Below, piece by piece: positions 3,967-36,516 of a DNA stretch of 64,000 nt (the first letter of the stretch is position 1; each line of letters opens with the position of its first letter). This DNA comes from Escherichia coli. GTDB lineage: Bacteria > Pseudomonadota > Gammaproteobacteria > Enterobacterales > Enterobacteriaceae. The DNA lies in the NCBI RefSeq assembly GCF_003991155.1, contig NZ_CP031293.1; one strand, 5' to 3'. Both the position numbers and the translations under genes were made by a program. A model generated the notes under the pieces. It saw nothing but the letters and a program-made list of their open reading frames with translations, had not been told where the DNA came from and did no database searches.

Positions 3967-4153
3967 AGAGCTCTCTCTTAGTTTAATTTCCGCCAGGTAA
4001 TCAGATGACACGACTGTGCTTCACGCCATCTATTAACATGTACGTCAGTATATGGGGATGTTTCCCCCACATTCAACGCCGAGAATAGAGGAAAAATTAA
4101 AGGGGAGATAAAATCCCCCCTTTTTGGTTAACTAATTGTATGGGAATGGTTAA

Positions 4154-5553: not shown

Positions 5554-6177
5554 TCAATTACGATGGGTCAGAATCGAATCGACCAGACCGTATTCCACCG
5601 CTTCAGGGGCGGAAAGGAAGCGATCGCGCTCGGTATCACGTTCAATCTGTTCTAATGATTGACCCGTATGAAGCGCCATAAGTTCATTCATGCGCCCTTT
5701 AACTTTCAGAATTTCACGGGCATGAATTTCGATATCGGTCGCCTGGCCCTGGTAGCCGCCCAACGGCTGGTGAATCATCACGCGCGAATTCGGCAGGCAG
5801 AAACGTTTACCTTTTGCCCCTGCAGTCAGCAAGAAAGCGCCCATCGAGGCCGCCTGGCCCATACAGATGGTGCTGACATCAGGCTTGATAAACTGCATGG
5901 TGTCATAGATAGACATCCCGGCAGTAATCACCCCGCCTGGAGAGTTAATGTACAGATAGATATCTTTTTCTGGGTTTTCTGCTTCCAGGAACAGCATCTG
6001 CGCCACAATCAGGTTAGCCATGTGGTCTTCAACCTGGCCAGTCAGAAAAATGACGCGTTCCTTAAGTAGACGAGAATAGATATCAAAAGAGCGCTCACCT
6101 CGTGAGGTCTGTTCAATGACCATCGGCACCAGCGCCATATGGGGTGCAAAGTTATCTCGTTCGCCGCTGTATGACAT
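5554..6177 (-). CDS. clpP: ATP-dependent Clp protease proteolytic subunit ClpP
   Basis: 207 aa [83 protein letters not shown]..., recognised as ClpP. Confidence 0.95.
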
Positions 6178-6422
6178 TTCCGTCTCCTGGATAAAATTGA
6201 AAAAACCTGCTGTACCGATTGTAACCTTATGGACGGATTATCAGCTAGTCCCTGTGTTATGGGTACGGCATCACCATATTTCAAGCATAACAATCTTTTG
6301 TTGTTACGCTAACACCGAAAGAGGCTTTTCGCACGGTTCCATGCAAAATTCATGACAAAAAAAAGCCCACCACCTGGCGGTGACGGGCCTTTGTGCGAAT
6401 TTAGCGCGTTATGCTGCGTAAA

Positions 6423-7730
<1,308 letters not shown>

Positions 7731-8064
7731 TCAAAAAATCACAGTGCTCGGTCAACTCTTACCCCGCAAGCACAGGTTGTTGGCTTCGCGGAACCGGGAT
7801 GTTCTTATAATCAATCACATTCCCTGTTACCAGAATCATCCCGAAAGCATTCAAATAGGACGCGGCATTATAGCGGCATCACTTTTATGAGTCGAGAACG
7901 GTTATTGCGCGCTGTCGCGTATTTTTTCACAATTCCCGGGCAATTTTCGTCTGAATGCTGGGCAAAAAGCGCAAAATCCAGACAAAACAAAACGGCCCGC
8001 AGGCCGTTTTTCATAAAATCTTTAGCAACATACTGGAAAAGCGCCGACAGTTGCAAATGCGTTT

Positions 8065-8382
8065 TTACGCGATGCTTCCTGCTCCACGACAGGGAGGAGA
8101 GGCAAAGACGGTATCCTGCAACCCTTCCCACTCCTTAATAGTGTAAGTATGCAGAGCCAGCGCATGAACGGTAGTAGAGAGTTCCTCCGCTAAAGTACTG
8201 TAAATCATTCGATGACGATTCAGAAAACGTTCACCCGTAAAACGATCGCTGACCAGCACAACTTTAAAATGGCTTTCAGAGCCGGCTGGGACATTGTGAC
8301 GATAGCTTTCATCCACTACTTCGAGGAATACGGGTTGGAACGCCGCCCTTAATTTTTCTTCTATCCGCTCACGTATCATCAT
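8065..8382 (-). CDS. bolA: Stress-induced morphogene / transcriptional regulator BolA
   Basis: ORF 8065..8415; BolA sequence starts at the internal [51 protein letters not shown]; start trimmed to 8382. Confidence 0.85.
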
Positions 8383-8686
8383 GAAATATCTCCTCCGACA
8401 ACGCTGAGATGTCATCCATCCCTTTAAATACTAGCCGCTTTTACCGTTTCCATTGCAGCTTAACAACAAATATTTAGGTTTCGTCCTGGTTTTTCCGTCA
8501 AGCGTATGAAGTTTACTGATTTAAAGATTGAAACACAGGCCTCGCATCAGCGTTTCTTTTACCAGGGGCGATTATTTCGTCAACATGATGAATTTACATG
8601 CCTTACCCACTTCCCCTCGCCGTTGGCAATGTTATGATGGCGGGAATTTTTACCAAACACGCTTAAGAGTCTCTGAGAGCCCGAAC

Positions 8687-9265
8687 ATGTTCAAAAAAAT
8701 CCTCTTCCCGTTAGTTGCTCTGTTTATGCTTGCAGGATGCGCAAAACCGCCAACAACTATTGAAGTTTCACCGACGATAACACTGCCACAGCAGGATCCA
8801 AGCCTGATGGGCGTCACCGTAAGCATTAATGGTGCCGATCAGCGTACCGATCAGGCGCTGGCAAAAGTCACCCGCGATAATCAAATCGTTACCCTGACCG
8901 CCTCCCGCGATCTGCGTTTCCTGCTGCAAGAAGTGCTGGAAAAACAGATGACCGCGCGTGGTTACATGGTTGGTCCGAATGGCCCGGTTAATCTGCAAAT
9001 CATCGTTAGCCAACTGTATGCTGACGTGTCCCAGGGCAACGTGCGCTATAACATCGCCACCAAAGCGGATATCGCTATCATCGCTACCGCGCAGAATGGC
9101 AACAAAATGACCAAAAACTATCGTGCCAGCTACAACGTTGAAGGTGCGTTCCAGGCCTCCAACAAAAATATCGCCGATGCGGTTAACAGTGTGCTGACCG
9201 ATACCATCGCTGATATGTCTCAGGACACCAGCATCCACGAATTCATCAAGCAGAACGCGCGTTAA
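8687..9265 (+). CDS. yajG: Lipoprotein YajG
   Basis: ORF 8528..9265; lipoprotein signal with lipobox MFKKILFPLVALFMLAGC begins at 8687. Confidence 0.85.
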   Translation: MFKKILFPLVALFMLAGCAKPPTTIEVSPTITLPQQDPSLMGVTVSINGADQRTDQALAKVTRDNQIVTLTASRDLRFLLQEVLEKQMTARGYMVGPNGPVNLQIIVSQLYADVSQGNVRYNIATKADIAIIATAQNGNKMTKNYRASYNVEGAFQASNKNIADAVNSVLTDTIADMSQDTSIHEFIKQNAR

Positions 9266-9308
9266 TTTCTGCCCTCTGGCCCGGTGCAAGCCGGGCCTGT
9301 AGACGCCC

Positions 9309-10784
9309 ATGTCCAGTCAATATTTACGTATTTTTCAACAGCCGCGTTCAGCCATATTGCTGATCCTGGGTTTTGCTTCCGGGCTACCGCTCGCCCTGAC
9401 GTCCGGCACCTTACAGGCCTGGATGACGGTCGAGAATATCGATCTCAAAACCATTGGTTTCTTCTCTCTGGTAGGCCAGGCTTACGTTTTTAAATTCCTC
9501 TGGTCACCACTGATGGACCGCTACACGCCCCCATTTTTCGGGCGGCGGCGCGGTTGGCTGCTCGCCACGCAAATTCTGTTATTAGTCGCCATTGCGGCGA
9601 TGGGTTTTCTCGAACCAGGCACCCAGCTCCGCTGGATGGCGGCACTGGCGGTGGTGATCGCTTTTTGCTCTGCCTCCCAGGATATTGTCTTCGATGCGTG
9701 GAAAACCGATGTGCTCCCGGCAGAAGAACGTGGTGCGGGCGCGGCAATCAGCGTGCTGGGTTACCGTTTAGGGATGCTGGTTTCCGGCGGCTTAGCCCTG
9801 TGGCTGGCAGATAAATGGCTGGGCTGGCAGGGCATGTACTGGTTGATGGCGGCGCTGTTGATCCCCTGTATTATCGCGACGTTACTTGCACCAGAACCCA
9901 CCGACACCATTCCTGTGCCCAAAACGCTGGAACAAGCGGTTGTTGCACCTCTGCGCGATTTCTTTGGTCGCAATAATGCCTGGCTTATTTTGCTTCTTAT
10001 CGTGCTGTATAAGCTGGGCGACGCATTCGCTATGAGCCTGACAACCACGTTTTTGATTCGTGGCGTCGGGTTTGATGCGGGTGAAGTAGGCGTGGTTAAC
10101 AAAACGCTTGGCTTACTGGCGACCATTGTTGGCGCATTGTACGGTGGGATTTTGATGCAGCGCCTGTCGCTGTTCCGTGCACTGCTGATTTTCGGCATTT
10201 TACAAGGTGCATCTAACGCCGGTTACTGGCTGCTGTCGATTACTGATAAGCATCTCTACAGCATGGGTGCAGCCGTCTTTTTCGAAAACCTCTGTGGCGG
10301 GATGGGTACATCAGCCTTTGTCGCGCTGTTAATGACGCTGTGTAATAAGTCATTTTCCGCTACTCAATTTGCCCTGCTCTCAGCGCTTTCTGCTGTAGGG
10401 CGAGTTTATGTCGGCCCCGTGGCGGGTTGGTTTGTTGAAGCACACGGCTGGTCGACATTCTATCTGTTCTCCGTCGCCGCTGCCGTACCAGGGCTTATTT
10501 TACTGCTGATTTGTCGCCAGACGCTTGAATATACACGAGTAAATGACAACTTTATCTCCCGTACCGAATATCCGGCAGGTTATGCCTTTGCCATGTGGAC
10601 ACTGGCGGCGGGCGTCAGCCTGTTGGCCGTGTGGTTACTGCTGTTGACGATGGACGCGCTGGATTTGACGCACTTCTCTTTCCTGCCTGCTCTGCTGGAA
10701 GTCGGGGTTTTAGTCGCCCTTTCTGGCGTCGTGCTTGGTGGTTTACTGGATTATCTGGCGCTACGAAAAACGCATCTGACGTAA
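9309..10784 (+). CDS. ampG: Muropeptide permease AmpG (MFS transporter)
   Basis: 491-aa polytopic membrane protein MSSQYLRIFQQPRSAILLILGFASGLPLALTSGTLQAWM..., recognised as AmpG. Confidence 0.9.
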   Translation: MSSQYLRIFQQPRSAILLILGFASGLPLALTSGTLQAWMTVENIDLKTIGFFSLVGQAYVFKFLWSPLMDRYTPPFFGRRRGWLLATQILLLVAIAAMGFLEPGTQLRWMAALAVVIAFCSASQDIVFDAWKTDVLPAEERGAGAAISVLGYRLGMLVSGGLALWLADKWLGWQGMYWLMAALLIPCIIATLLAPEPTDTIPVPKTLEQAVVAPLRDFFGRNNAWLILLLIVLYKLGDAFAMSLTTTFLIRGVGFDAGEVGVVNKTLGLLATIVGALYGGILMQRLSLFRALLIFGILQGASNAGYWLLSITDKHLYSMGAAVFFENLCGGMGTSAFVALLMTLCNKSFSATQFALLSALSAVGRVYVGPVAGWFVEAHGWSTFYLFSVAAAVPGLILLLICRQTLEYTRVNDNFISRTEYPAGYAFAMWTLAAGVSLLAVWLLLLTMDALDLTHFSFLPALLEVGVLVALSGVVLGGLLDYLALRKTHLT

Positions 10785-11243
10785 TCTGTAAATATTATTT
10801 AGCTGTAGTAATCACTCGCCGTAATTATTACGGCTAAATAAACATCAGCATCGCTTATTAATATTTGTTCTTTTGTGCGGCTTAGCGTCTGGAAATTATT
10901 GACGCTATTTATGAATTCTATTTTTCTTACACGATTCAGCTAATGAGTCTTTATTTTCTCACTACCAAGTTGTCACCTTAATGATAATTATTTGTTAAAT
11001 AATTGTTTTATTTCGCATTGGTTATACCAATTGCCAGCCCAGACTCCTTCTGCACTCCCCTTTTGTTATAACGCCCTTTTGCAACAGCTTCTTAAAATCA
11101 ATCCGATATGTTTTGCAACATATGTGACCTGGAAGCCAAATCCAAGTAACAGGAATTTAATCATGTTTACAGTAATGTAACCTTCCCGTAAAATGCCCAC
11201 ACACTTTAAACGCCACCAGATCCCGTGGAATTGAGGTCGTTAA

Positions 11244-12191
<948 letters not shown>

Positions 12192-15148: not shown

Positions 15149-16039
15149 ATGATGTTTAAGCAATACCTGCAAGTAACGAAACCAGGCATCATCTTTGGCA
15201 ACCTGATCTCGGTGATTGGGGGATTCCTGTTGGCCTCAAAGGGCAGCATTGATTATCCCCTGTTTATCTACACGCTGGTTGGGGTGTCACTGGTTGTGGC
15301 GTCGGGTTGTGTGTTTAACAACTACATCGACAGGGATATCGACAGAAAGATGGAAAGGACGAAGAATCGGGTGCTGGTTAAAGGCCTGATCTCTCCTGCT
15401 GTCTCGCTGGTGTACGCCACCTTGCTAGGCTTTGCTGGCTTTATGCTGCTGTGGTTTGGCGCGAATCCGCTGGCCTGCTGGCTGGGGGTGATGGGCTTTG
15501 TGGTTTATGTCGGCGTTTATAGCCTGTACATGAAACGTCATTCTGTCTACGGCACATTGATTGGTTCGCTCTCCGGCGCTGCGCCTCCGGTGATCGGTTA
15601 CTGTGCGGTAACCGGCGAGTTCGATAGCGGCGCAGCGATCCTGCTGGCTATCTTCAGCCTGTGGCAGATGCCTCACTCCTATGCCATCGCCATTTTCCGC
15701 TTTAAGGATTACCAGGCGGCAAACATTCCGGTATTGCCAGTGGTAAAAGGCATTTCGGTGGCGAAGAATCACATCACGCTGTATATCATCGCCTTTGCCG
15801 TTGCCACGCTGATGCTCTCTCTTGGCGGCTACGCTGGGTATAAATATCTGGTGGTCGCCGCTGCGGTGAGCGTCTGGTGGTTAGGCATGGCTCTGCGCGG
15901 CTATAAAGTTGCTGATGATCGAATCTGGGCGCGCAAGCTGTTCGGCTTTTCTATCATCGCCATCACTGCCCTCTCGGTAATGATGTCCGTTGATTTTATG
16001 GTGCCGGACTCGCATACGCTGCTGGCTGCTGTGTGGTAA
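15149..16039 (+). CDS. cyoE: Heme O synthase (protoheme IX farnesyltransferase)
   Basis: ORF 15104..16039; recognised N-terminus [29 protein letters not shown] begins at 15149. Confidence 0.9.
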
Positions 16040-16080: not shown

Positions 16081-16092
16081 TTGTCTGAGATC

Positions 16093-16168
16093 AGAGATAC
16101 GGCTAATAACCGTATCTCTTGACAGAGTGAGCATATGCACATAAATTAATCACACGGTTGATAGCCGT
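16093..16168 (+). promoter_or_regulatory. Two related palindromes (ATACGG-N7-CCGTAT type) upstream of the antitoxin gene; candidate operator sites
   Basis: Perfect inverted repeat agagatacgg-ctaataa-ccgtatctct at 16093-16119, and a weaker copy acgg-ttgatag-ccgt at 16154-16168, both within about 130 bp upstream of the ATG at 16224. Confidence 0.4.
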
Positions 16169-16223
16169 ATTATGCATGAGATCGACTCCCTACGATTTCA
16201 TTCAGTTAATCAAAGAGGTCATA

Positions 16224-16535
16224 ATGCCTGGAAAAACAGTCGCTCTACCCGATATCGATAAAACGCTGAAAAATGCGCGGGTTGAACTCAAAACCAGTCC
16301 CGACGCCAAAAACAAACTTCGTGAAGCTGCGCAAGCCGTTGGGGTAGATTTAAGCGCTTTTATTTTGAGCGCAGCTATGGAACGCGCCGAAAGTGTGCTT
16401 GATAACCAACGTCGCCGTGAGCTTTCGAATCAAAGCTGGGAACTGATGAACCAACTCATCGCTGAACCTGCTCAACCGACGCTCGCCCTCAAGGCGTTAA
16501 TGAAAAGGAAAAACAGCGATGGTCGACAAGCATGA
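16224..16535 (+). CDS. DUF1778-family type II antitoxin (TacA/AtaR-like), partner of the downstream GNAT toxin
   Basis: ORF-track frame 16158..16535; I place the start at ATG 16224, preceded by RBS aaagaggt, giving MPGKTVALPDIDKTLKNARVELKTSPDAKNKLREAAQAVGVDLSAFILSAAMERAESVL. Size (about 103 aa) and overlap with the GNAT toxin fit the DUF1778 antitoxin family. Confidence 0.7.
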   Translation: MPGKTVALPDIDKTLKNARVELKTSPDAKNKLREAAQAVGVDLSAFILSAAMERAESVLDNQRRRELSNQSWELMNQLIAEPAQPTLALKALMKRKNSDGRQA

Positions 16536-17061
16536 AGAGATTACTCTGCCCATAGTCCTCTCCTGTAATTATCAGTCTGATATTATTTATCCTGGGCAAA
16601 AACAGTTTGATTGCGGTAACCCTGTTATCGATAAATTTGTACGCGCATCGCTAAAGAAAAGTGTGCGTAATAGCGACTGTGCTGCTAAAGCTCTTATTGA
16701 CAGACAAAGTGGTGAACTGATTGGCATCTGTACTTTTACGGCATATTCGCTGGAAAAACAACGCGTTTCTGGCGTCCTTCAGGGTTCACAACCTTCAGAG
16801 ATTGGTGTTGTCAGATTAGTCATGTTAGGGGTAGCGCGGAAATATCAAAAGCGGGGCTTTGGTCAGGACCTACTATGTAATTTTTTTGAACATGTAAAAA
16901 TAATTCACCGGGCATTACCAATTAAAGGGGTTTATCTTGATGCTGACCCTGCCGCCATTAACTTTTATACTCGCCTCGGCTTTGTTCAGCTTTCAGCGAG
17001 GCCCAATGTTTTCGGTGCTGTACCGATGTTTTTAGCGATTCAGCATATTCTCGCGGCTTAG
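16519..17061 (+). CDS. GNAT-family acetyltransferase toxin (TacT/AtaT/ItaT-like; predicted aminoacyl-tRNA acetyltransferase)
   Basis: 180 aa, ATG at 16519 overlapping the antitoxin 3' end by 17 nt; FDCG motif near the N-terminus and GNAT acetyl-CoA motif QKRGFGQDLL. Confidence 0.7.
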   Translation: MVDKHEEITLPIVLSCNYQSDIIYPGQKQFDCGNPVIDKFVRASLKKSVRNSDCAAKALIDRQSGELIGICTFTAYSLEKQRVSGVLQGSQPSEIGVVRLVMLGVARKYQKRGFGQDLLCNFFEHVKIIHRALPIKGVYLDADPAAINFYTRLGFVQLSARPNVFGAVPMFLAIQHILAA

Positions 17062-17116
17062 ATTATTATCGCCTCCGGCCAGGGCTAGTTTTGCCTCAGC
17101 CGGGGACTGAGCAGCG

Positions 17117-17398
17117 TTACCACTTTTGTTCAATTGCCCCCGCTTTCAGCAACTCCACATCCTTGCCGTTAATGGTTGCCGTTGCGGCAACGATTGTGGT
17201 CCTTACAGTTGCACAAGATTTTCGCTCAAATTCCGGTTTATAAAGAATTAGAGACGAATTACTGGTAAATGAATCAAATATGTAATCAGTAAAGCTAATA
17301 TTCAGCCGGTTTAAACCGAAAGGCGCGAAGCCAACCGTTTGGTTAATCTCCTTACCGGATGGGCTACGAATGCTGAATGTCACGCGAAGATTGGCCAC
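17117..17398 (-). CDS. Hypothetical small protein (93 aa), immediately downstream of the Sel1-repeat gene
   Basis: ORF MANLRVTFSIRSPSGKEINQTVGF...TVRTTIVAATATINGKDVELLKAGAIEQKW; no recognisable family; may be a gene fragment. Confidence 0.3.
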   Translation of the reverse strand: MANLRVTFSIRSPSGKEINQTVGFAPFGLNRLNISFTDYIFDSFTSNSSLILYKPEFERKSCATVRTTIVAATATINGKDVELLKAGAIEQKW

Positions 17399-17403
17399 TT
17401 CGC

Positions 17404-17961
17404 CTAATTTATTGGTGGTCCGGAAGACTTTCTGTCAATCATGTCTTTTCGACATGTAGCCAGAAAGTCTTCCGGACCACCATAAATGTGGACACCTTTA
17501 TCAAGATATTCCTTCGCTTTCTTACAATCTACCTCAACATACTGACCATTGGCGTACATCATGCCCAACCTGGACCATGCTAAATTCACACCGTATTGCG
17601 CGGCCTGATTAAATAGTGCATACGCTTTGGCATAATCCACCCGCACCAGCTCACCGTCGTAGTAGATACTCCCCAGCGCTAACGGAGCTTCTCTATCACC
17701 GTGTTTAACGGCTAACTCAAACCATTTAATCGCTTCCTGAACATCAGGTTTGGTATCAAAGCGAGGCTGATAATATTCCCAGCCTAACAGGCTCTGCGCG
17801 TCGACATCTCCCAATTCAGCCATTTTATGCAGTCTATTTATAACATCGGGCGCAGGTTGACCACCGTATATGCTGTCATACAATTCATGCGCTTTCTCGC
17901 TTGCCACCACGCATGGTGAAACTATTAGCATTAAAGAAAATAATATTCTTTTAGTTAACAT
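17404..17961 (-). CDS. Secreted Sel1-like repeat (TPR-like) protein
   Basis: ORF 17404..18021; probable start at the ATG at 17961 giving signal peptide MLTKRILFSLMLIVSPCVVA, followed by Sel1-type repeats (AQSLLGWEYYQ..., ALGSIYYDGELVRVDYAKAYALFNQAAQYG, AWSRLGMMYANGQYVEVDCKKAKEYLDKG). Confidence 0.65.
   Translation of the reverse strand: MLTKRILFSLMLIVSPCVVASEKAHELYDSIYGGQPAPDVINRLHKMAELGDVDAQSLLGWEYYQPRFDTKPDVQEAIKWFELAVKHGDREAPLALGSIYYDGELVRVDYAKAYALFNQAAQYGVNLAWSRLGMMYANGQYVEVDCKKAKEYLDKGVHIYGGPEDFLATCRKDMIDRKSSGPPIN
17415..17481. repeat. Nested perfect palindrome (21-bp inverted repeat around an inner 6-bp hairpin)
   Basis: ggtggtccggaagactttctg (17415-17435) and cagaaagtcttccggaccacc (17461-17481) are exact reverse complements; the 25-nt spacer contains catgtc-ttttc-gacatg. 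Confidence 0.85.
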
Positions 17962-18367
17962 GTATACCTTTATGTTCTCTCTGTCATATATTTCCATAAT
18001 AATTAACCACCAAACATCCATTTAATGAATAAATACAGTGCCATAAAGGCCCAAGTAATAAGCACACATTTAACCTGAAACATTATCATCGATGTCACCA
18101 AATCGTTTATTTAGTGAGATAAAAATAGCATGTTCGCAAGATAAAAAATGCACATAGCAATCAAGAAATAATATTATTACTTTTGATGTAAAACTATTTA
18201 GCTTTAAGAATAATTTTTTCAACATATAGAGCATTCATTTTATGAATGCAAAATAAACATGCCTGACACACAAACTATTCTCCTCTGTAATATTTTCTCA
18301 TTAACACTCTGTTTACCCAACATGCGCTCCGCACTACACTATGTGGGCATTTTTTTAAGAGGTGGTA

Positions 18368-19732
18368 ATGAACGATTATAAAATGACGCCAGGTGAGCGG
18401 CGCGCGACCTGGGGTTTAGGCACCGTTTTCTCGTTGCGCATGCTGGGCATGTTCATGGTTCTGCCGGTTCTGACCACGTACGGCATGGCTCTGCAAGGTG
18501 CCAGCGAAGCATTAATCGGTATTGCCATTGGTATTTATGGTCTGACTCAGGCCGTTTTTCAGATTCCGTTTGGCCTGCTTTCAGACCGCATTGGTCGCAA
18601 ACCATTAATTGTCGGTGGGCTGGCGGTGTTTGCCGCCGGTAGCGTTATTGCTGCGCTCTCCGACTCCATCTGGGGAATTATTCTGGGCCGGGCGTTACAA
18701 GGTTCTGGAGCGATTGCCGCTGCCGTTATGGCACTACTTTCTGATCTCACGCGCGAACAAAACCGCACCAAAGCGATGGCGTTTATCGGCGTGAGCTTTG
18801 GCATTACCTTTGCCATTGCGATGGTGCTTGGCCCGATCATCACTCACAAACTTGGACTGCACGCGCTGTTCTGGATGATCGCTATTCTGGCAACAACCGG
18901 CATTGCGTTGACCATTTGGGTTGTGCCCAACAGTAGCACTCACGTACTTAATCGTGAGTCCGGAATGGTGAAAGGCAGTTTCAGTAAAGTGCTGGCGGAA
19001 CCGCGGTTGCTGAAACTCAACTTTGGCATTATGTGTCTACACATGCTTCTGATGTCTACGTTTGTTGCCCTGCCCGGACAGCTGGCTGATGCGGGGTTCC
19101 CGGCGGCTGAACACTGGAAGGTCTATCTGGCGACGATGCTAATCGCCTTTGGCTCGGTCGTGCCTTTCATTATCTACGCTGAAGTTAAGCGCAAAATGAA
19201 GCAAGTCTTTGTCTTCTGCGTCGGATTGATCGTGGTTGCGGAAATTGTGTTGTGGAACGCACAAACGCAGTTCTGGCAACTGGTGGTCGGCGTGCAGCTT
19301 TTCTTTGTAGCGTTTAATTTGATGGAAGCCCTTCTGCCTTCACTTATCAGTAAAGAGTCGCCTGCAGGTTACAAAGGTACGGCGATGGGTGTTTACTCCA
19401 CCAGCCAGTTTCTTGGCGTGGCGATTGGCGGTTCGCTGGGCGGCTGGATTGACGGCATGTTTGACGGTCAGGGCGTATTTCTCGCTGGCGCAATGCTGGC
19501 CGCAGTGTGGCTGGCAGTCGCCAGTACCATGAAAGAACCGCCGTATGTCAGCAGCTTGCGCATTGAAATCCCGGCGGACATTGCCGCAAACGAAGCGTTA
19601 AAAGTACGTTTGCTGGAAACTGAAGGCGTCAAAGAAGTGTTGATTGCAGAAGAAGAACATTCAGCGTATGTGAAAATCGACAGCAAAGTGACGAATCGCT
19701 TTGAGGTTGAACAGGCAATTCGCCAGGCATAA
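18368..19732 (+). CDS. yajR: MFS transporter YajR
   Basis: ORF begins at GTG 18362; recognised N-terminus MNDYKMTPGERRATWGLGTVFSLRMLG starts at ATG 18368; 12-TM MFS protein with C-terminal soluble domain. Confidence 0.9.
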   Translation: MNDYKMTPGERRATWGLGTVFSLRMLGMFMVLPVLTTYGMALQGASEALIGIAIGIYGLTQAVFQIPFGLLSDRIGRKPLIVGGLAVFAAGSVIAALSDSIWGIILGRALQGSGAIAAAVMALLSDLTREQNRTKAMAFIGVSFGITFAIAMVLGPIITHKLGLHALFWMIAILATTGIALTIWVVPNSSTHVLNRESGMVKGSFSKVLAEPRLLKLNFGIMCLHMLLMSTFVALPGQLADAGFPAAEHWKVYLATMLIAFGSVVPFIIYAEVKRKMKQVFVFCVGLIVVAEIVLWNAQTQFWQLVVGVQLFFVAFNLMEALLPSLISKESPAGYKGTAMGVYSTSQFLGVAIGGSLGGWIDGMFDGQGVFLAGAMLAAVWLAVASTMKEPPYVSSLRIEIPADIAANEALKVRLLETEGVKEVLIAEEEHSAYVKIDSKVTNRFEVEQAIRQA

Positions 19733-35999: not shown

Positions 36000-36314
36000 T
36001 TACCAGTGACGGCGAGGTTCCATCAGCTGATGAAGAATGCGCGCAATGAGAATGTCATCGACTCTTATAACGTAATAAACAGTGTGAAACCTAAATGCGA
36101 TCTTCTTTACCTCTGGAATCGCATCATAGTCTTGCCCTATCTCGGGCATTTGAGAGAGTGTATCCAGAAAAATGCCGAGAGAGTCGGTGTAGCGATCCGC
36201 CTGCTCCTCACCAAACTTTCCCAGCGTGTAGTCATAGATCCCTCTGAAATCTTCAACAGCTTTTCCGCTAAGCTTATACACGATGTTTTTGCTTCCTTTC
36301 TGCTGCGATATCAC
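36000..36314 (-). CDS. parE: ParE/RelE-superfamily toxin (type II TA)
   Basis: 104 aa from GTG at 36314; ...IVYKLSGKAVEDFRGIYDY...HTVYYVIRVDDILIARILHQLMEPRRHW matches the ParE pattern; overlaps upstream antitoxin gene by 41 nt. Confidence 0.7.
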   Translation of the reverse strand: MISQQKGSKNIVYKLSGKAVEDFRGIYDYTLGKFGEEQADRYTDSLGIFLDTLSQMPEIGQDYDAIPEVKKIAFRFHTVYYVIRVDDILIARILHQLMEPRRHW

Positions 36315-36516
36315 GAAGCGTCATCGAACTTTCACCGCTCTCAAGACCTTCAATAACAGCATTTCTGACAGCTTCATCCCTGGATTCTTGTTGTTCCAAT
36401 AGACGAAGCGCTGAACGCATTACTTCACTGGCCGAGCCATAACGACCAGACTGGACCATCCGTGTAATAAAACTATCTAATTGTTCGCCAACGCTTACTG
36501 AGGTAATTTTGCGCAT
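36274..36516 (-). CDS. parD: ParD-like antitoxin (ribbon-helix-helix)
   Basis: 80 aa MRKITSVSVGEQLDSFITRMVQSGRYGSASEVMRSALRLLEQQESRDEAV..., matching the ParD G-x-Y-x-SASE-V-x-R-x-A-x-R-x-L signature; RBS ggaga upstream. Confidence 0.7.
   Translation of the reverse strand: MRKITSVSVGEQLDSFITRMVQSGRYGSASEVMRSALRLLEQQESRDEAVRNAVIEGLESGESSMTLRDIAAERKQKHRV

Follow-up and report, generated by a model that had tools for sequence, protein, structure and literature searches.

We analysed a 64,000-nucleotide (nt) stretch of an Escherichia coli genome (contig NZ_CP031293.1; hereafter 'the window'), which is colinear with E. coli NZ_AP021933.1 (5 mismatches in 49,948 nt), and focus on positions 17117–17961, where two open reading frames (ORFs) lie on the minus strand. 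The 5′ ORF encodes 185 amino acids (aa) from a start at MLTKR, or 205 aa if an upstream ATG at 18021 is used, and the second, GTG-initiated and in another frame, encodes 93 aa; 5 nt lie between the TAG stop of the former (17406–17404) and the GTG of the latter (17398). A first-pass annotation, made from the sequence alone, placed both ORFs correctly and took them for a gene of an exported Sel1-repeat protein and a separate, possibly co-transcribed gene, while allowing that the 93-aa ORF might be the remnant of a larger one. It is this last option that was borne out. The region is a single gene in two fragments, an ordinary pseudogene, and the 93-aa ORF is collinear with residues 219–311 of an intact 311-aa protein. 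By homology both ORFs are thus parts of one disrupted gene, the very finding that the first-pass annotation had named as fatal to its two-gene proposal. RefSeq already flags it: in NZ_AP021933, the Prokaryotic Genome Annotation Pipeline (PGAP) treats the whole of 17117–17961 as one pseudogene, 'tetratricopeptide repeat protein, frameshifted'.

The locus is found in 1,369 of the 5,426 complete E. coli genomes, at 95–100% identity, which sets it well apart from a chance sequence, and in most carriers the matched span is 936 base pairs (bp) compared to 845 bp in the window. A probe placed within the segment that the window has lost matches 1,312 complete genomes, and roughly 1,310 of the roughly 1,369 carriers have an uninterrupted gene of 936 bp and 311 aa. 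These intact alleles are 96–99.9% identical and include WP_012311701 (strain EC332, 99.9% identical to the window) and WP_001375746 (O26:H11 strain 11368); alignment to these two gives a net loss of 91 nt in the window. The window allele therefore does not keep an open frame over the orthologous length: its frame is shifted after codon 177 and ends 7 codons on, after the out-of-frame residues SSGPPIN, and the GTG start of the 93-aa ORF is an internal codon, Val219, of the intact gene.

The deleted segment covers residues 178–208. Among them are L184, P185 and C205, none of which varies between Escherichia species, a Pseudocitrobacter-like lineage, long forms of 484–486 aa and Affinibrenneria. 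Because this segment with its invariant residues is retained in E. albertii, the cryptic Escherichia clades, Pseudocitrobacter, Salmonella and Affinibrenneria, the long allele is ancestral.

A base-by-base comparison with EC332 locates the lesion precisely. Positions 534–633 of the EC332 coding sequence (100 nt) are replaced in the window by 9 nt, GTCTTCCGG, and outside this replacement the two alleles differ by one substitution across 845 nt. The novel bases occupy 17420–17428, where the plus strand reads CCGGAAGAC, and all nine are the exact reverse complement of CCGGAAGAC in the left arm of an inverted repeat just upstream, across a 26-nt loop. The repeat is 22 bp long, has 100% complementarity and is the only one that an inverted-repeat search found in 17100–18000. 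Its ancestral counterpart is an imperfect hairpin, with a TTTCTG/CAGAAA stem around an inner CATGTC/GACATG stem, and over the same 80 nt the predicted stability goes from −19.6 kcal/mol in the ancestral to −51.9 kcal/mol in the derived sequence. An imperfect repeat has thus been made perfect with every novel base templated by the opposite arm, as in quasi-palindrome template switching, and the original sequence resumes at the first downstream ACCACCA.

The simplest account of this product, from which the mechanism is inferred, is a single replication template switch at the quasi-palindrome. After copying up to GACAGAAA, the 3′ end of the nascent strand (CAGAAA) would snap back onto the TTTCTG of the pre-existing 6-bp hairpin, the folded-back strand would copy 9–16 nt of the opposite, left arm, yielding GTCTTCCGGACCACCA, and it would then re-anneal, through 7 nt of microhomology, where ACCACCA next occurs on the original template, 100 nt downstream. 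One such switch would turn 100 nt into 9, create the perfect 22-bp palindrome and shift the frame. In comparative genomics such events are usually mis-scored as a deletion plus several single-nucleotide polymorphisms.

The intact gene reveals what was broken. An AlphaFold2 model of the intact protein, built from an 18-sequence alignment, is confident (predicted local distance difference test, pLDDT, 86.9; predicted template modelling score, pTM, 0.84) and has two domains, with nine helices up to residue 178 and a β-sandwich thereafter. The layout is a signal peptide to A20, a Sel1 α-solenoid over residues 22–178 and the β-sandwich over residues ~185–311. The first-pass description of an exported protein with three Sel1 repeats was right: Pfam finds three tandem α/α repeats of the ~36–44-aa Sel1 type (PF08238) in the 5′ ORF, at residues 54–89 (E value 2.5e-5), 95–122 (2e-3) and 131–155 (1e-3), with a best match of 2.4e-6 in the intact protein, and the modelled superhelical solenoid is superposable on solved Sel1-like repeat proteins. 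By rule-based inspection, the N-terminus looks like a signal for signal peptidase I, with K4/R5, a hydrophobic stretch at residues 6–19, V/S/C at position −3 and A20 at −1. A20 is invariant across 18 homologues; cleavage would follow it, and we infer that the protein is exported through Sec. NCBIfam returned only sub-threshold, generic Sel1/tetratricopeptide matches for the intact protein (MerG, AlgK, MotX and ExoR), and the only PADLOC match, to PtuA, was weak and was rejected as spurious. Several UniProt entries, including A0A0H3MM38, A0A376ZPS8 and A0A376P1S9 in the AlphaFold database (AFDB), carry the name '(putative) zinc-dependent hydrolase', which looks like a propagated mis-annotation that neither sequence nor model supports.

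The C-terminal domain is modelled as a seven-to-eight-stranded β-sandwich of the immunoglobulin (Ig)/fibronectin type III (FNIII)-like kind, the fold of IrmA, the interleukin receptor mimic protein A of uropathogenic E. coli (PDB 5EK5). At the sequence level the Pfam family IrmA (PF18673) matches 2 of 10 family members at an E value ≤ 1e-3 (best 5.3e-5), and reaches 0.59 for the 93-aa ORF and 1.3 for the intact E. coli domain. Aligning the family to the IrmA alignment with hhalign gave an E value of 0.013 over 83 columns at a probability of 3.4%, and a comparison with a single IrmA sequence was uninformative (E value 0.17, 20 columns). The former alignment places C205, invariant in the family, and C280, nearly invariant, on C46 and C105 of the IrmA precursor, that is C21 and C80 of the mature protein, which form an unusual intradomain disulfide in IrmA (PMC4807369); the C205–C280 pair is thus predicted, by alignment, to match that disulfide. 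A search of PDB sequences with the domain profile found no match at an E value ≤ 10, and in a Foldseek search of AFDB50 the significant range held only the domain's own family, with IrmA outside the top 50. We conclude that the domain is IrmA-like and probably homologous to IrmA as a distant relative. We do not file it as a member of the IrmA family because the E. coli sequence falls below the Pfam threshold, because architecture and genomic context differ and because its significant AFDB50 matches are all from its own family.

Searching 1.84 billion sequences with the profile of this domain gave 33 representatives at an E value ≤ 1e-3. Nearly all matches are C-terminal in proteins of 300–600 aa, and every full-length one examined has N-terminal Sel1 repeats. 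Members occur in Escherichia (E. coli, E. albertii, the cryptic clades and E. fergusonii) and Shigella, in many Salmonella serovars, and in Pseudocitrobacter, Achromobacter, Pectobacterium, Morganella, Proteus, Providencia and Affinibrenneria. To our knowledge, earlier descriptions of IrmA present it solely as a stand-alone vaccine-candidate antigen of pathogenic E. coli. The recognition that an uncharacterized enterobacterial family joins an IrmA-like domain to Sel1 repeats is modestly new, and through these relatives in a chromosomal family the role of the IrmA fold can be approached by comparison. A literature search found nothing on the protein accessions, nor on cyoE or yajR together with Sel1, and for presumed Salmonella locus tags it gave only an unrelated paper.

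Table 1. Features around the pseudogene in the window and content of the corresponding cyoE–yajR sites elsewhere.
Feature	Position	Strand	Content or basis
cyoABCDE	ends at 16039	+	
Variable low-GC insert, cyoE to yajR	16090–18280 (boundaries approximate)		carries the pseudogene and the TacA/GNAT pair
DUF1778/TacA antitoxin	16224–16535	+	
GNAT toxin, 180 aa	16519–17061	+	
Pseudogene	17117–17961	−	disrupted orthologue of a 311-aa, putatively exported protein with Sel1 repeats and a probable IrmA-like domain; PGAP and alignment to intact alleles
3′ fragment (93-aa ORF)	17117–17398	−	intact residues 219–311, distal part of the predicted IrmA-like β-sandwich
Mutation scar	arms 17413–17434 and 17461–17482		perfect 22-bp inverted repeat with 26-nt loop; inverted-repeat search
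5′ fragment	17404–17961	−	putative signal peptide and complete Sel1 solenoid (intact residues 1–177), then SSGPPIN and TAG
yajR	18368–19732	+	followed by yajQ, panE and yajL
cyoE–yajR site, window			low-GC insert of ~2.2 kb
cyoE–yajR site, K-12			empty, 148-bp spacer
cyoE–yajR site, Pseudocitrobacter-like contig L006			478-aa and 308-aa paralogues, lone TacA
Site on contig L008			484-aa form directly beside cyoE
yajR–cyoE site, Salmonella enterica contig L012 (AAFJES010000004.1)	6001–12031		three diverged 484–496-aa paralogues with Sel1 repeats and a probable IrmA-like domain
Same L012 site, further			326-aa putatively exported protein without Pfam matches; 116-aa remnant of a short-form C-terminal domain

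The cyoE–yajR site is a variable hot spot (Table 1). In the window it is occupied by an accessory, dispensable insert, which holds the pseudogene and has a guanine–cytosine (GC) content of 0.27–0.48 compared to 0.51–0.57 in the flanks. Upstream of the Sel1 gene, in a stretch shared with the divergent yajR (17950–18400), the GC content is 0.27–0.31; such AT-richness is characteristic of the sort of horizontally acquired DNA that H-NS silences. A promoter and terminator scan of 16900–18450 gave promoters not clearly above the shuffled expectation, and no transcription signal was assigned. The Salmonella site resembles an array of paralogues accompanied by products of decay, and the gene is located outside the cyoE–yajR interval in Affinibrenneria, Providencia and Achromobacter. 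The insert also carries an intact type II toxin–antitoxin pair, TacA/GNAT, whose genes overlap by 17 nt. E. coli has the pair, and L008, L012, Affinibrenneria, Providencia and Achromobacter lack it; because it is reduced to TacA in L006 and missing from L008 and L012, it appears to be an independent passenger.

Other parts of the window hold a second accessory toxin–antitoxin module, a RelE/ParE toxin with a ParD antitoxin between yajD and secF (36000–36516, minus strand), and a 481-aa 'hypothetical protein' between acpH and malZ (42826–44271, minus strand). The small RNA sraA (4038–4133, plus strand; 106.7 bits) is the only Rfam family above its gathering threshold in the 64 kb.

As for what the locus can still make, the 5′ ORF keeps residues 1–177, including the invariant cysteines C146 and C170 and the capping helix (166–178), and could still yield an exported Sel1-only stub. 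A 93-aa product, if made by reinitiation, would be cytoplasmic and signal-less, and would not fold because it has neither the strands 187–196 and 205–213 nor the disulfide partner C205. Other disrupted forms exist. In two human gut metagenome contigs (L015:648–1583 and L016:493–1428) a TTA-to-TAA nonsense change, L199*, splits the gene into a 198-aa Sel1 ORF and a 106-aa ORF; none of the 5,426 complete genomes carries this allele. For the cluster of 198-aa proteins (P0012), a −1 slip in a T-run was considered and rejected, as the DNA has the TTA-to-TAA change. A Shigella sonnei form has no N-terminus.

Taken as a whole, the locus is very likely to be one dead gene for an exported two-domain protein of 311 aa, broken by a single replication error in one E. 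coli lineage. Several points weigh against this. Both alleles are known at the sequence level, and the template switch is deduced from its product rather than observed. The link of the E. coli protein to IrmA is weak by sequence (Pfam E values of 0.59–1.3, hhalign probability of 3.4%, no PDB match), and IrmA is not among the top 50 of the Foldseek AFDB50 matches. Finally, two independent alleles stop just after Sel1, so that a Sel1-only product could be functionally retained.

The intact protein is most likely a protein-binding adaptor, either periplasmic or secreted, that has two binding modules. By analogy with EsiB, which binds secretory immunoglobulin A (SIgA), and with IrmA, which binds cytokines in vitro, it may bind host factors, and the pattern of tandem paralogues suggests immunity to periplasm-acting toxins as an alternative. 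A broader interpretation joins these ideas: an unrecognized, fast-turnover family of exported proteins with Sel1 repeats and IrmA-like Ig domains would occupy a cyoE–yajR hot spot in Escherichia, Salmonella and Pseudocitrobacter, with 0 to at least 3 paralogues and frequent remnants, its members could bind host factors or competitor toxins, and the window and L199* alleles might be selected Sel1-only variants. We consider this combination unlikely.

The part of it that concerns the window, adaptive domain loss, holds that a Sel1-only variant was selected in which binding by the exported solenoid was kept and the IrmA-like domain shed. The truncation falls exactly at the domain boundary and preserves the capping helix as well as C146 and C170, L199* likewise ends just past the Sel1 domain, and the 48-nt probe across the deletion junction matches 49 complete genomes (100%; none other of the 5,426), whose sources, on several continents, are humans, cattle, poultry, dogs and wastewater. 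However, only two such alleles are known, the Shigella sonnei form loses the opposite end, and roughly 75% of E. coli are without the gene, which, with the empty site of K-12, suggests dispensability. The wide sampling of the deletion may itself reflect one clone, because all 49 carriers share 100% identity over the junction, as do no fewer than 20 of them over the entire ~2.3-kb insert. We consider selection for the truncated form improbable.

Equally concerned with function is the possibility that the intact family consists of orphan periplasmic immunity proteins against phospholipase-type effectors of the type VI secretion system (T6SS), like Pseudomonas aeruginosa PA5086–PA5088. The intact protein is Sel1-type and predicted to be periplasmic, and the diverged tandem paralogues and remnants between yajR and cyoE, three full copies and a fragment in Salmonella and two copies in the Pseudocitrobacter-like genome, resemble immunity-gene arrays. 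Nevertheless, none of the eight contexts (the window and seven related loci) has an adjacent vgrG, tle, pld or other effector gene, and known Sel1 immunity proteins have no counterpart of the IrmA-like domain. Nor did the neighbourhood supply the associated effector or toxin that the first-pass annotation had suggested looking for: the eight contexts share no conserved partner and no consistent effector, toxin or secretion neighbour. We regard an immunity role as quite improbable.

Two further proposals are far less tenable. That the region holds two co-transcribed genes, one for an exported Sel1 protein and one for an independent 93-aa protein, is very improbable and already refuted at the level of gene identity, because homology makes both ORFs one gene. 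Both are open, on the same strand and close enough for termination–reinitiation at the GTG to be conceivable, and a weak AGG lies 5 nt upstream of that codon; against this stand the collinearity with a single protein in ~1,310 genomes, the internal Val codon and the PGAP call, and the 93-aa ORF has no signal peptide, no NCBIfam or PADLOC match, a Pfam match never better than 0.59, and is short of two β-strands and the invariant C205. The other, that the lesion is an error of sequencing or assembly or else a frameshift that is programmed or phase-variable, is hardly credible: frameshifts in single assemblies are often errors, but an artefact is excluded because the identical junction occurs in 49 independently sequenced complete genomes, and a 100-to-9-nt replacement is no homopolymer slip and is irreversible. 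With one dead gene as the preferred interpretation, the annotation is tidied: the 93-aa 'gene of unknown function' should be dropped from the gene count, the Sel1 ORF becomes a truncated allele, and the pseudogene as such is an ordinary finding.

The parallels with known systems are partial in each case. EsiB (c5321; PDB 4BWR) and the Helicobacter proteins HcpB and HcpC are Sel1-like repeat proteins, as is the N-terminal part of the intact protein, whereas they have no C-terminal β-sandwich. The intact protein has 3 canonical repeats plus caps compared to 11 in EsiB, and the SIgA binding of EsiB is not transferable to it. The periplasmic Sel1 proteins PA5086–PA5088 (PDB 6LCH) form tandem paralogues like members of this family, which differs in the lack of an adjacent effector, the lack of a common specific sequence signature and the extra IrmA-like domain. 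[quoted passage not shown] However, IrmA is a stand-alone protein of ~150 aa from an agn43–yeeR–irmA operon on mobile islands, whereas the domain described here follows a Sel1 solenoid within one 311-aa protein encoded beside cyoE, in the cyoE–yajR locus, and shares only ~17% identity with it. Of 216 IrmA homologues found, the 120 listed have no Sel1 repeats and are mostly ~150 aa long (91–219 aa).

The lesion has a precedent too, and its proposed origin by template switching is a modestly new side result. Quasi-palindrome-associated template-switch mutation has been studied with E. coli reporters by the Lovett laboratory (PMC7202029, PMC6357072). As in those mutations, an imperfect inverted repeat was made perfect, the opposite arm accounts for all the novel bases, and several clustered changes would stem from one event. 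Whereas the classical cases involve a few nucleotides within the palindrome, the event in the window would have returned 100 nt downstream and added a large deletion, making it, if the proposed mechanism is right, a clean natural example of a template switch that joins a templated insertion to a 100-nt deletion.
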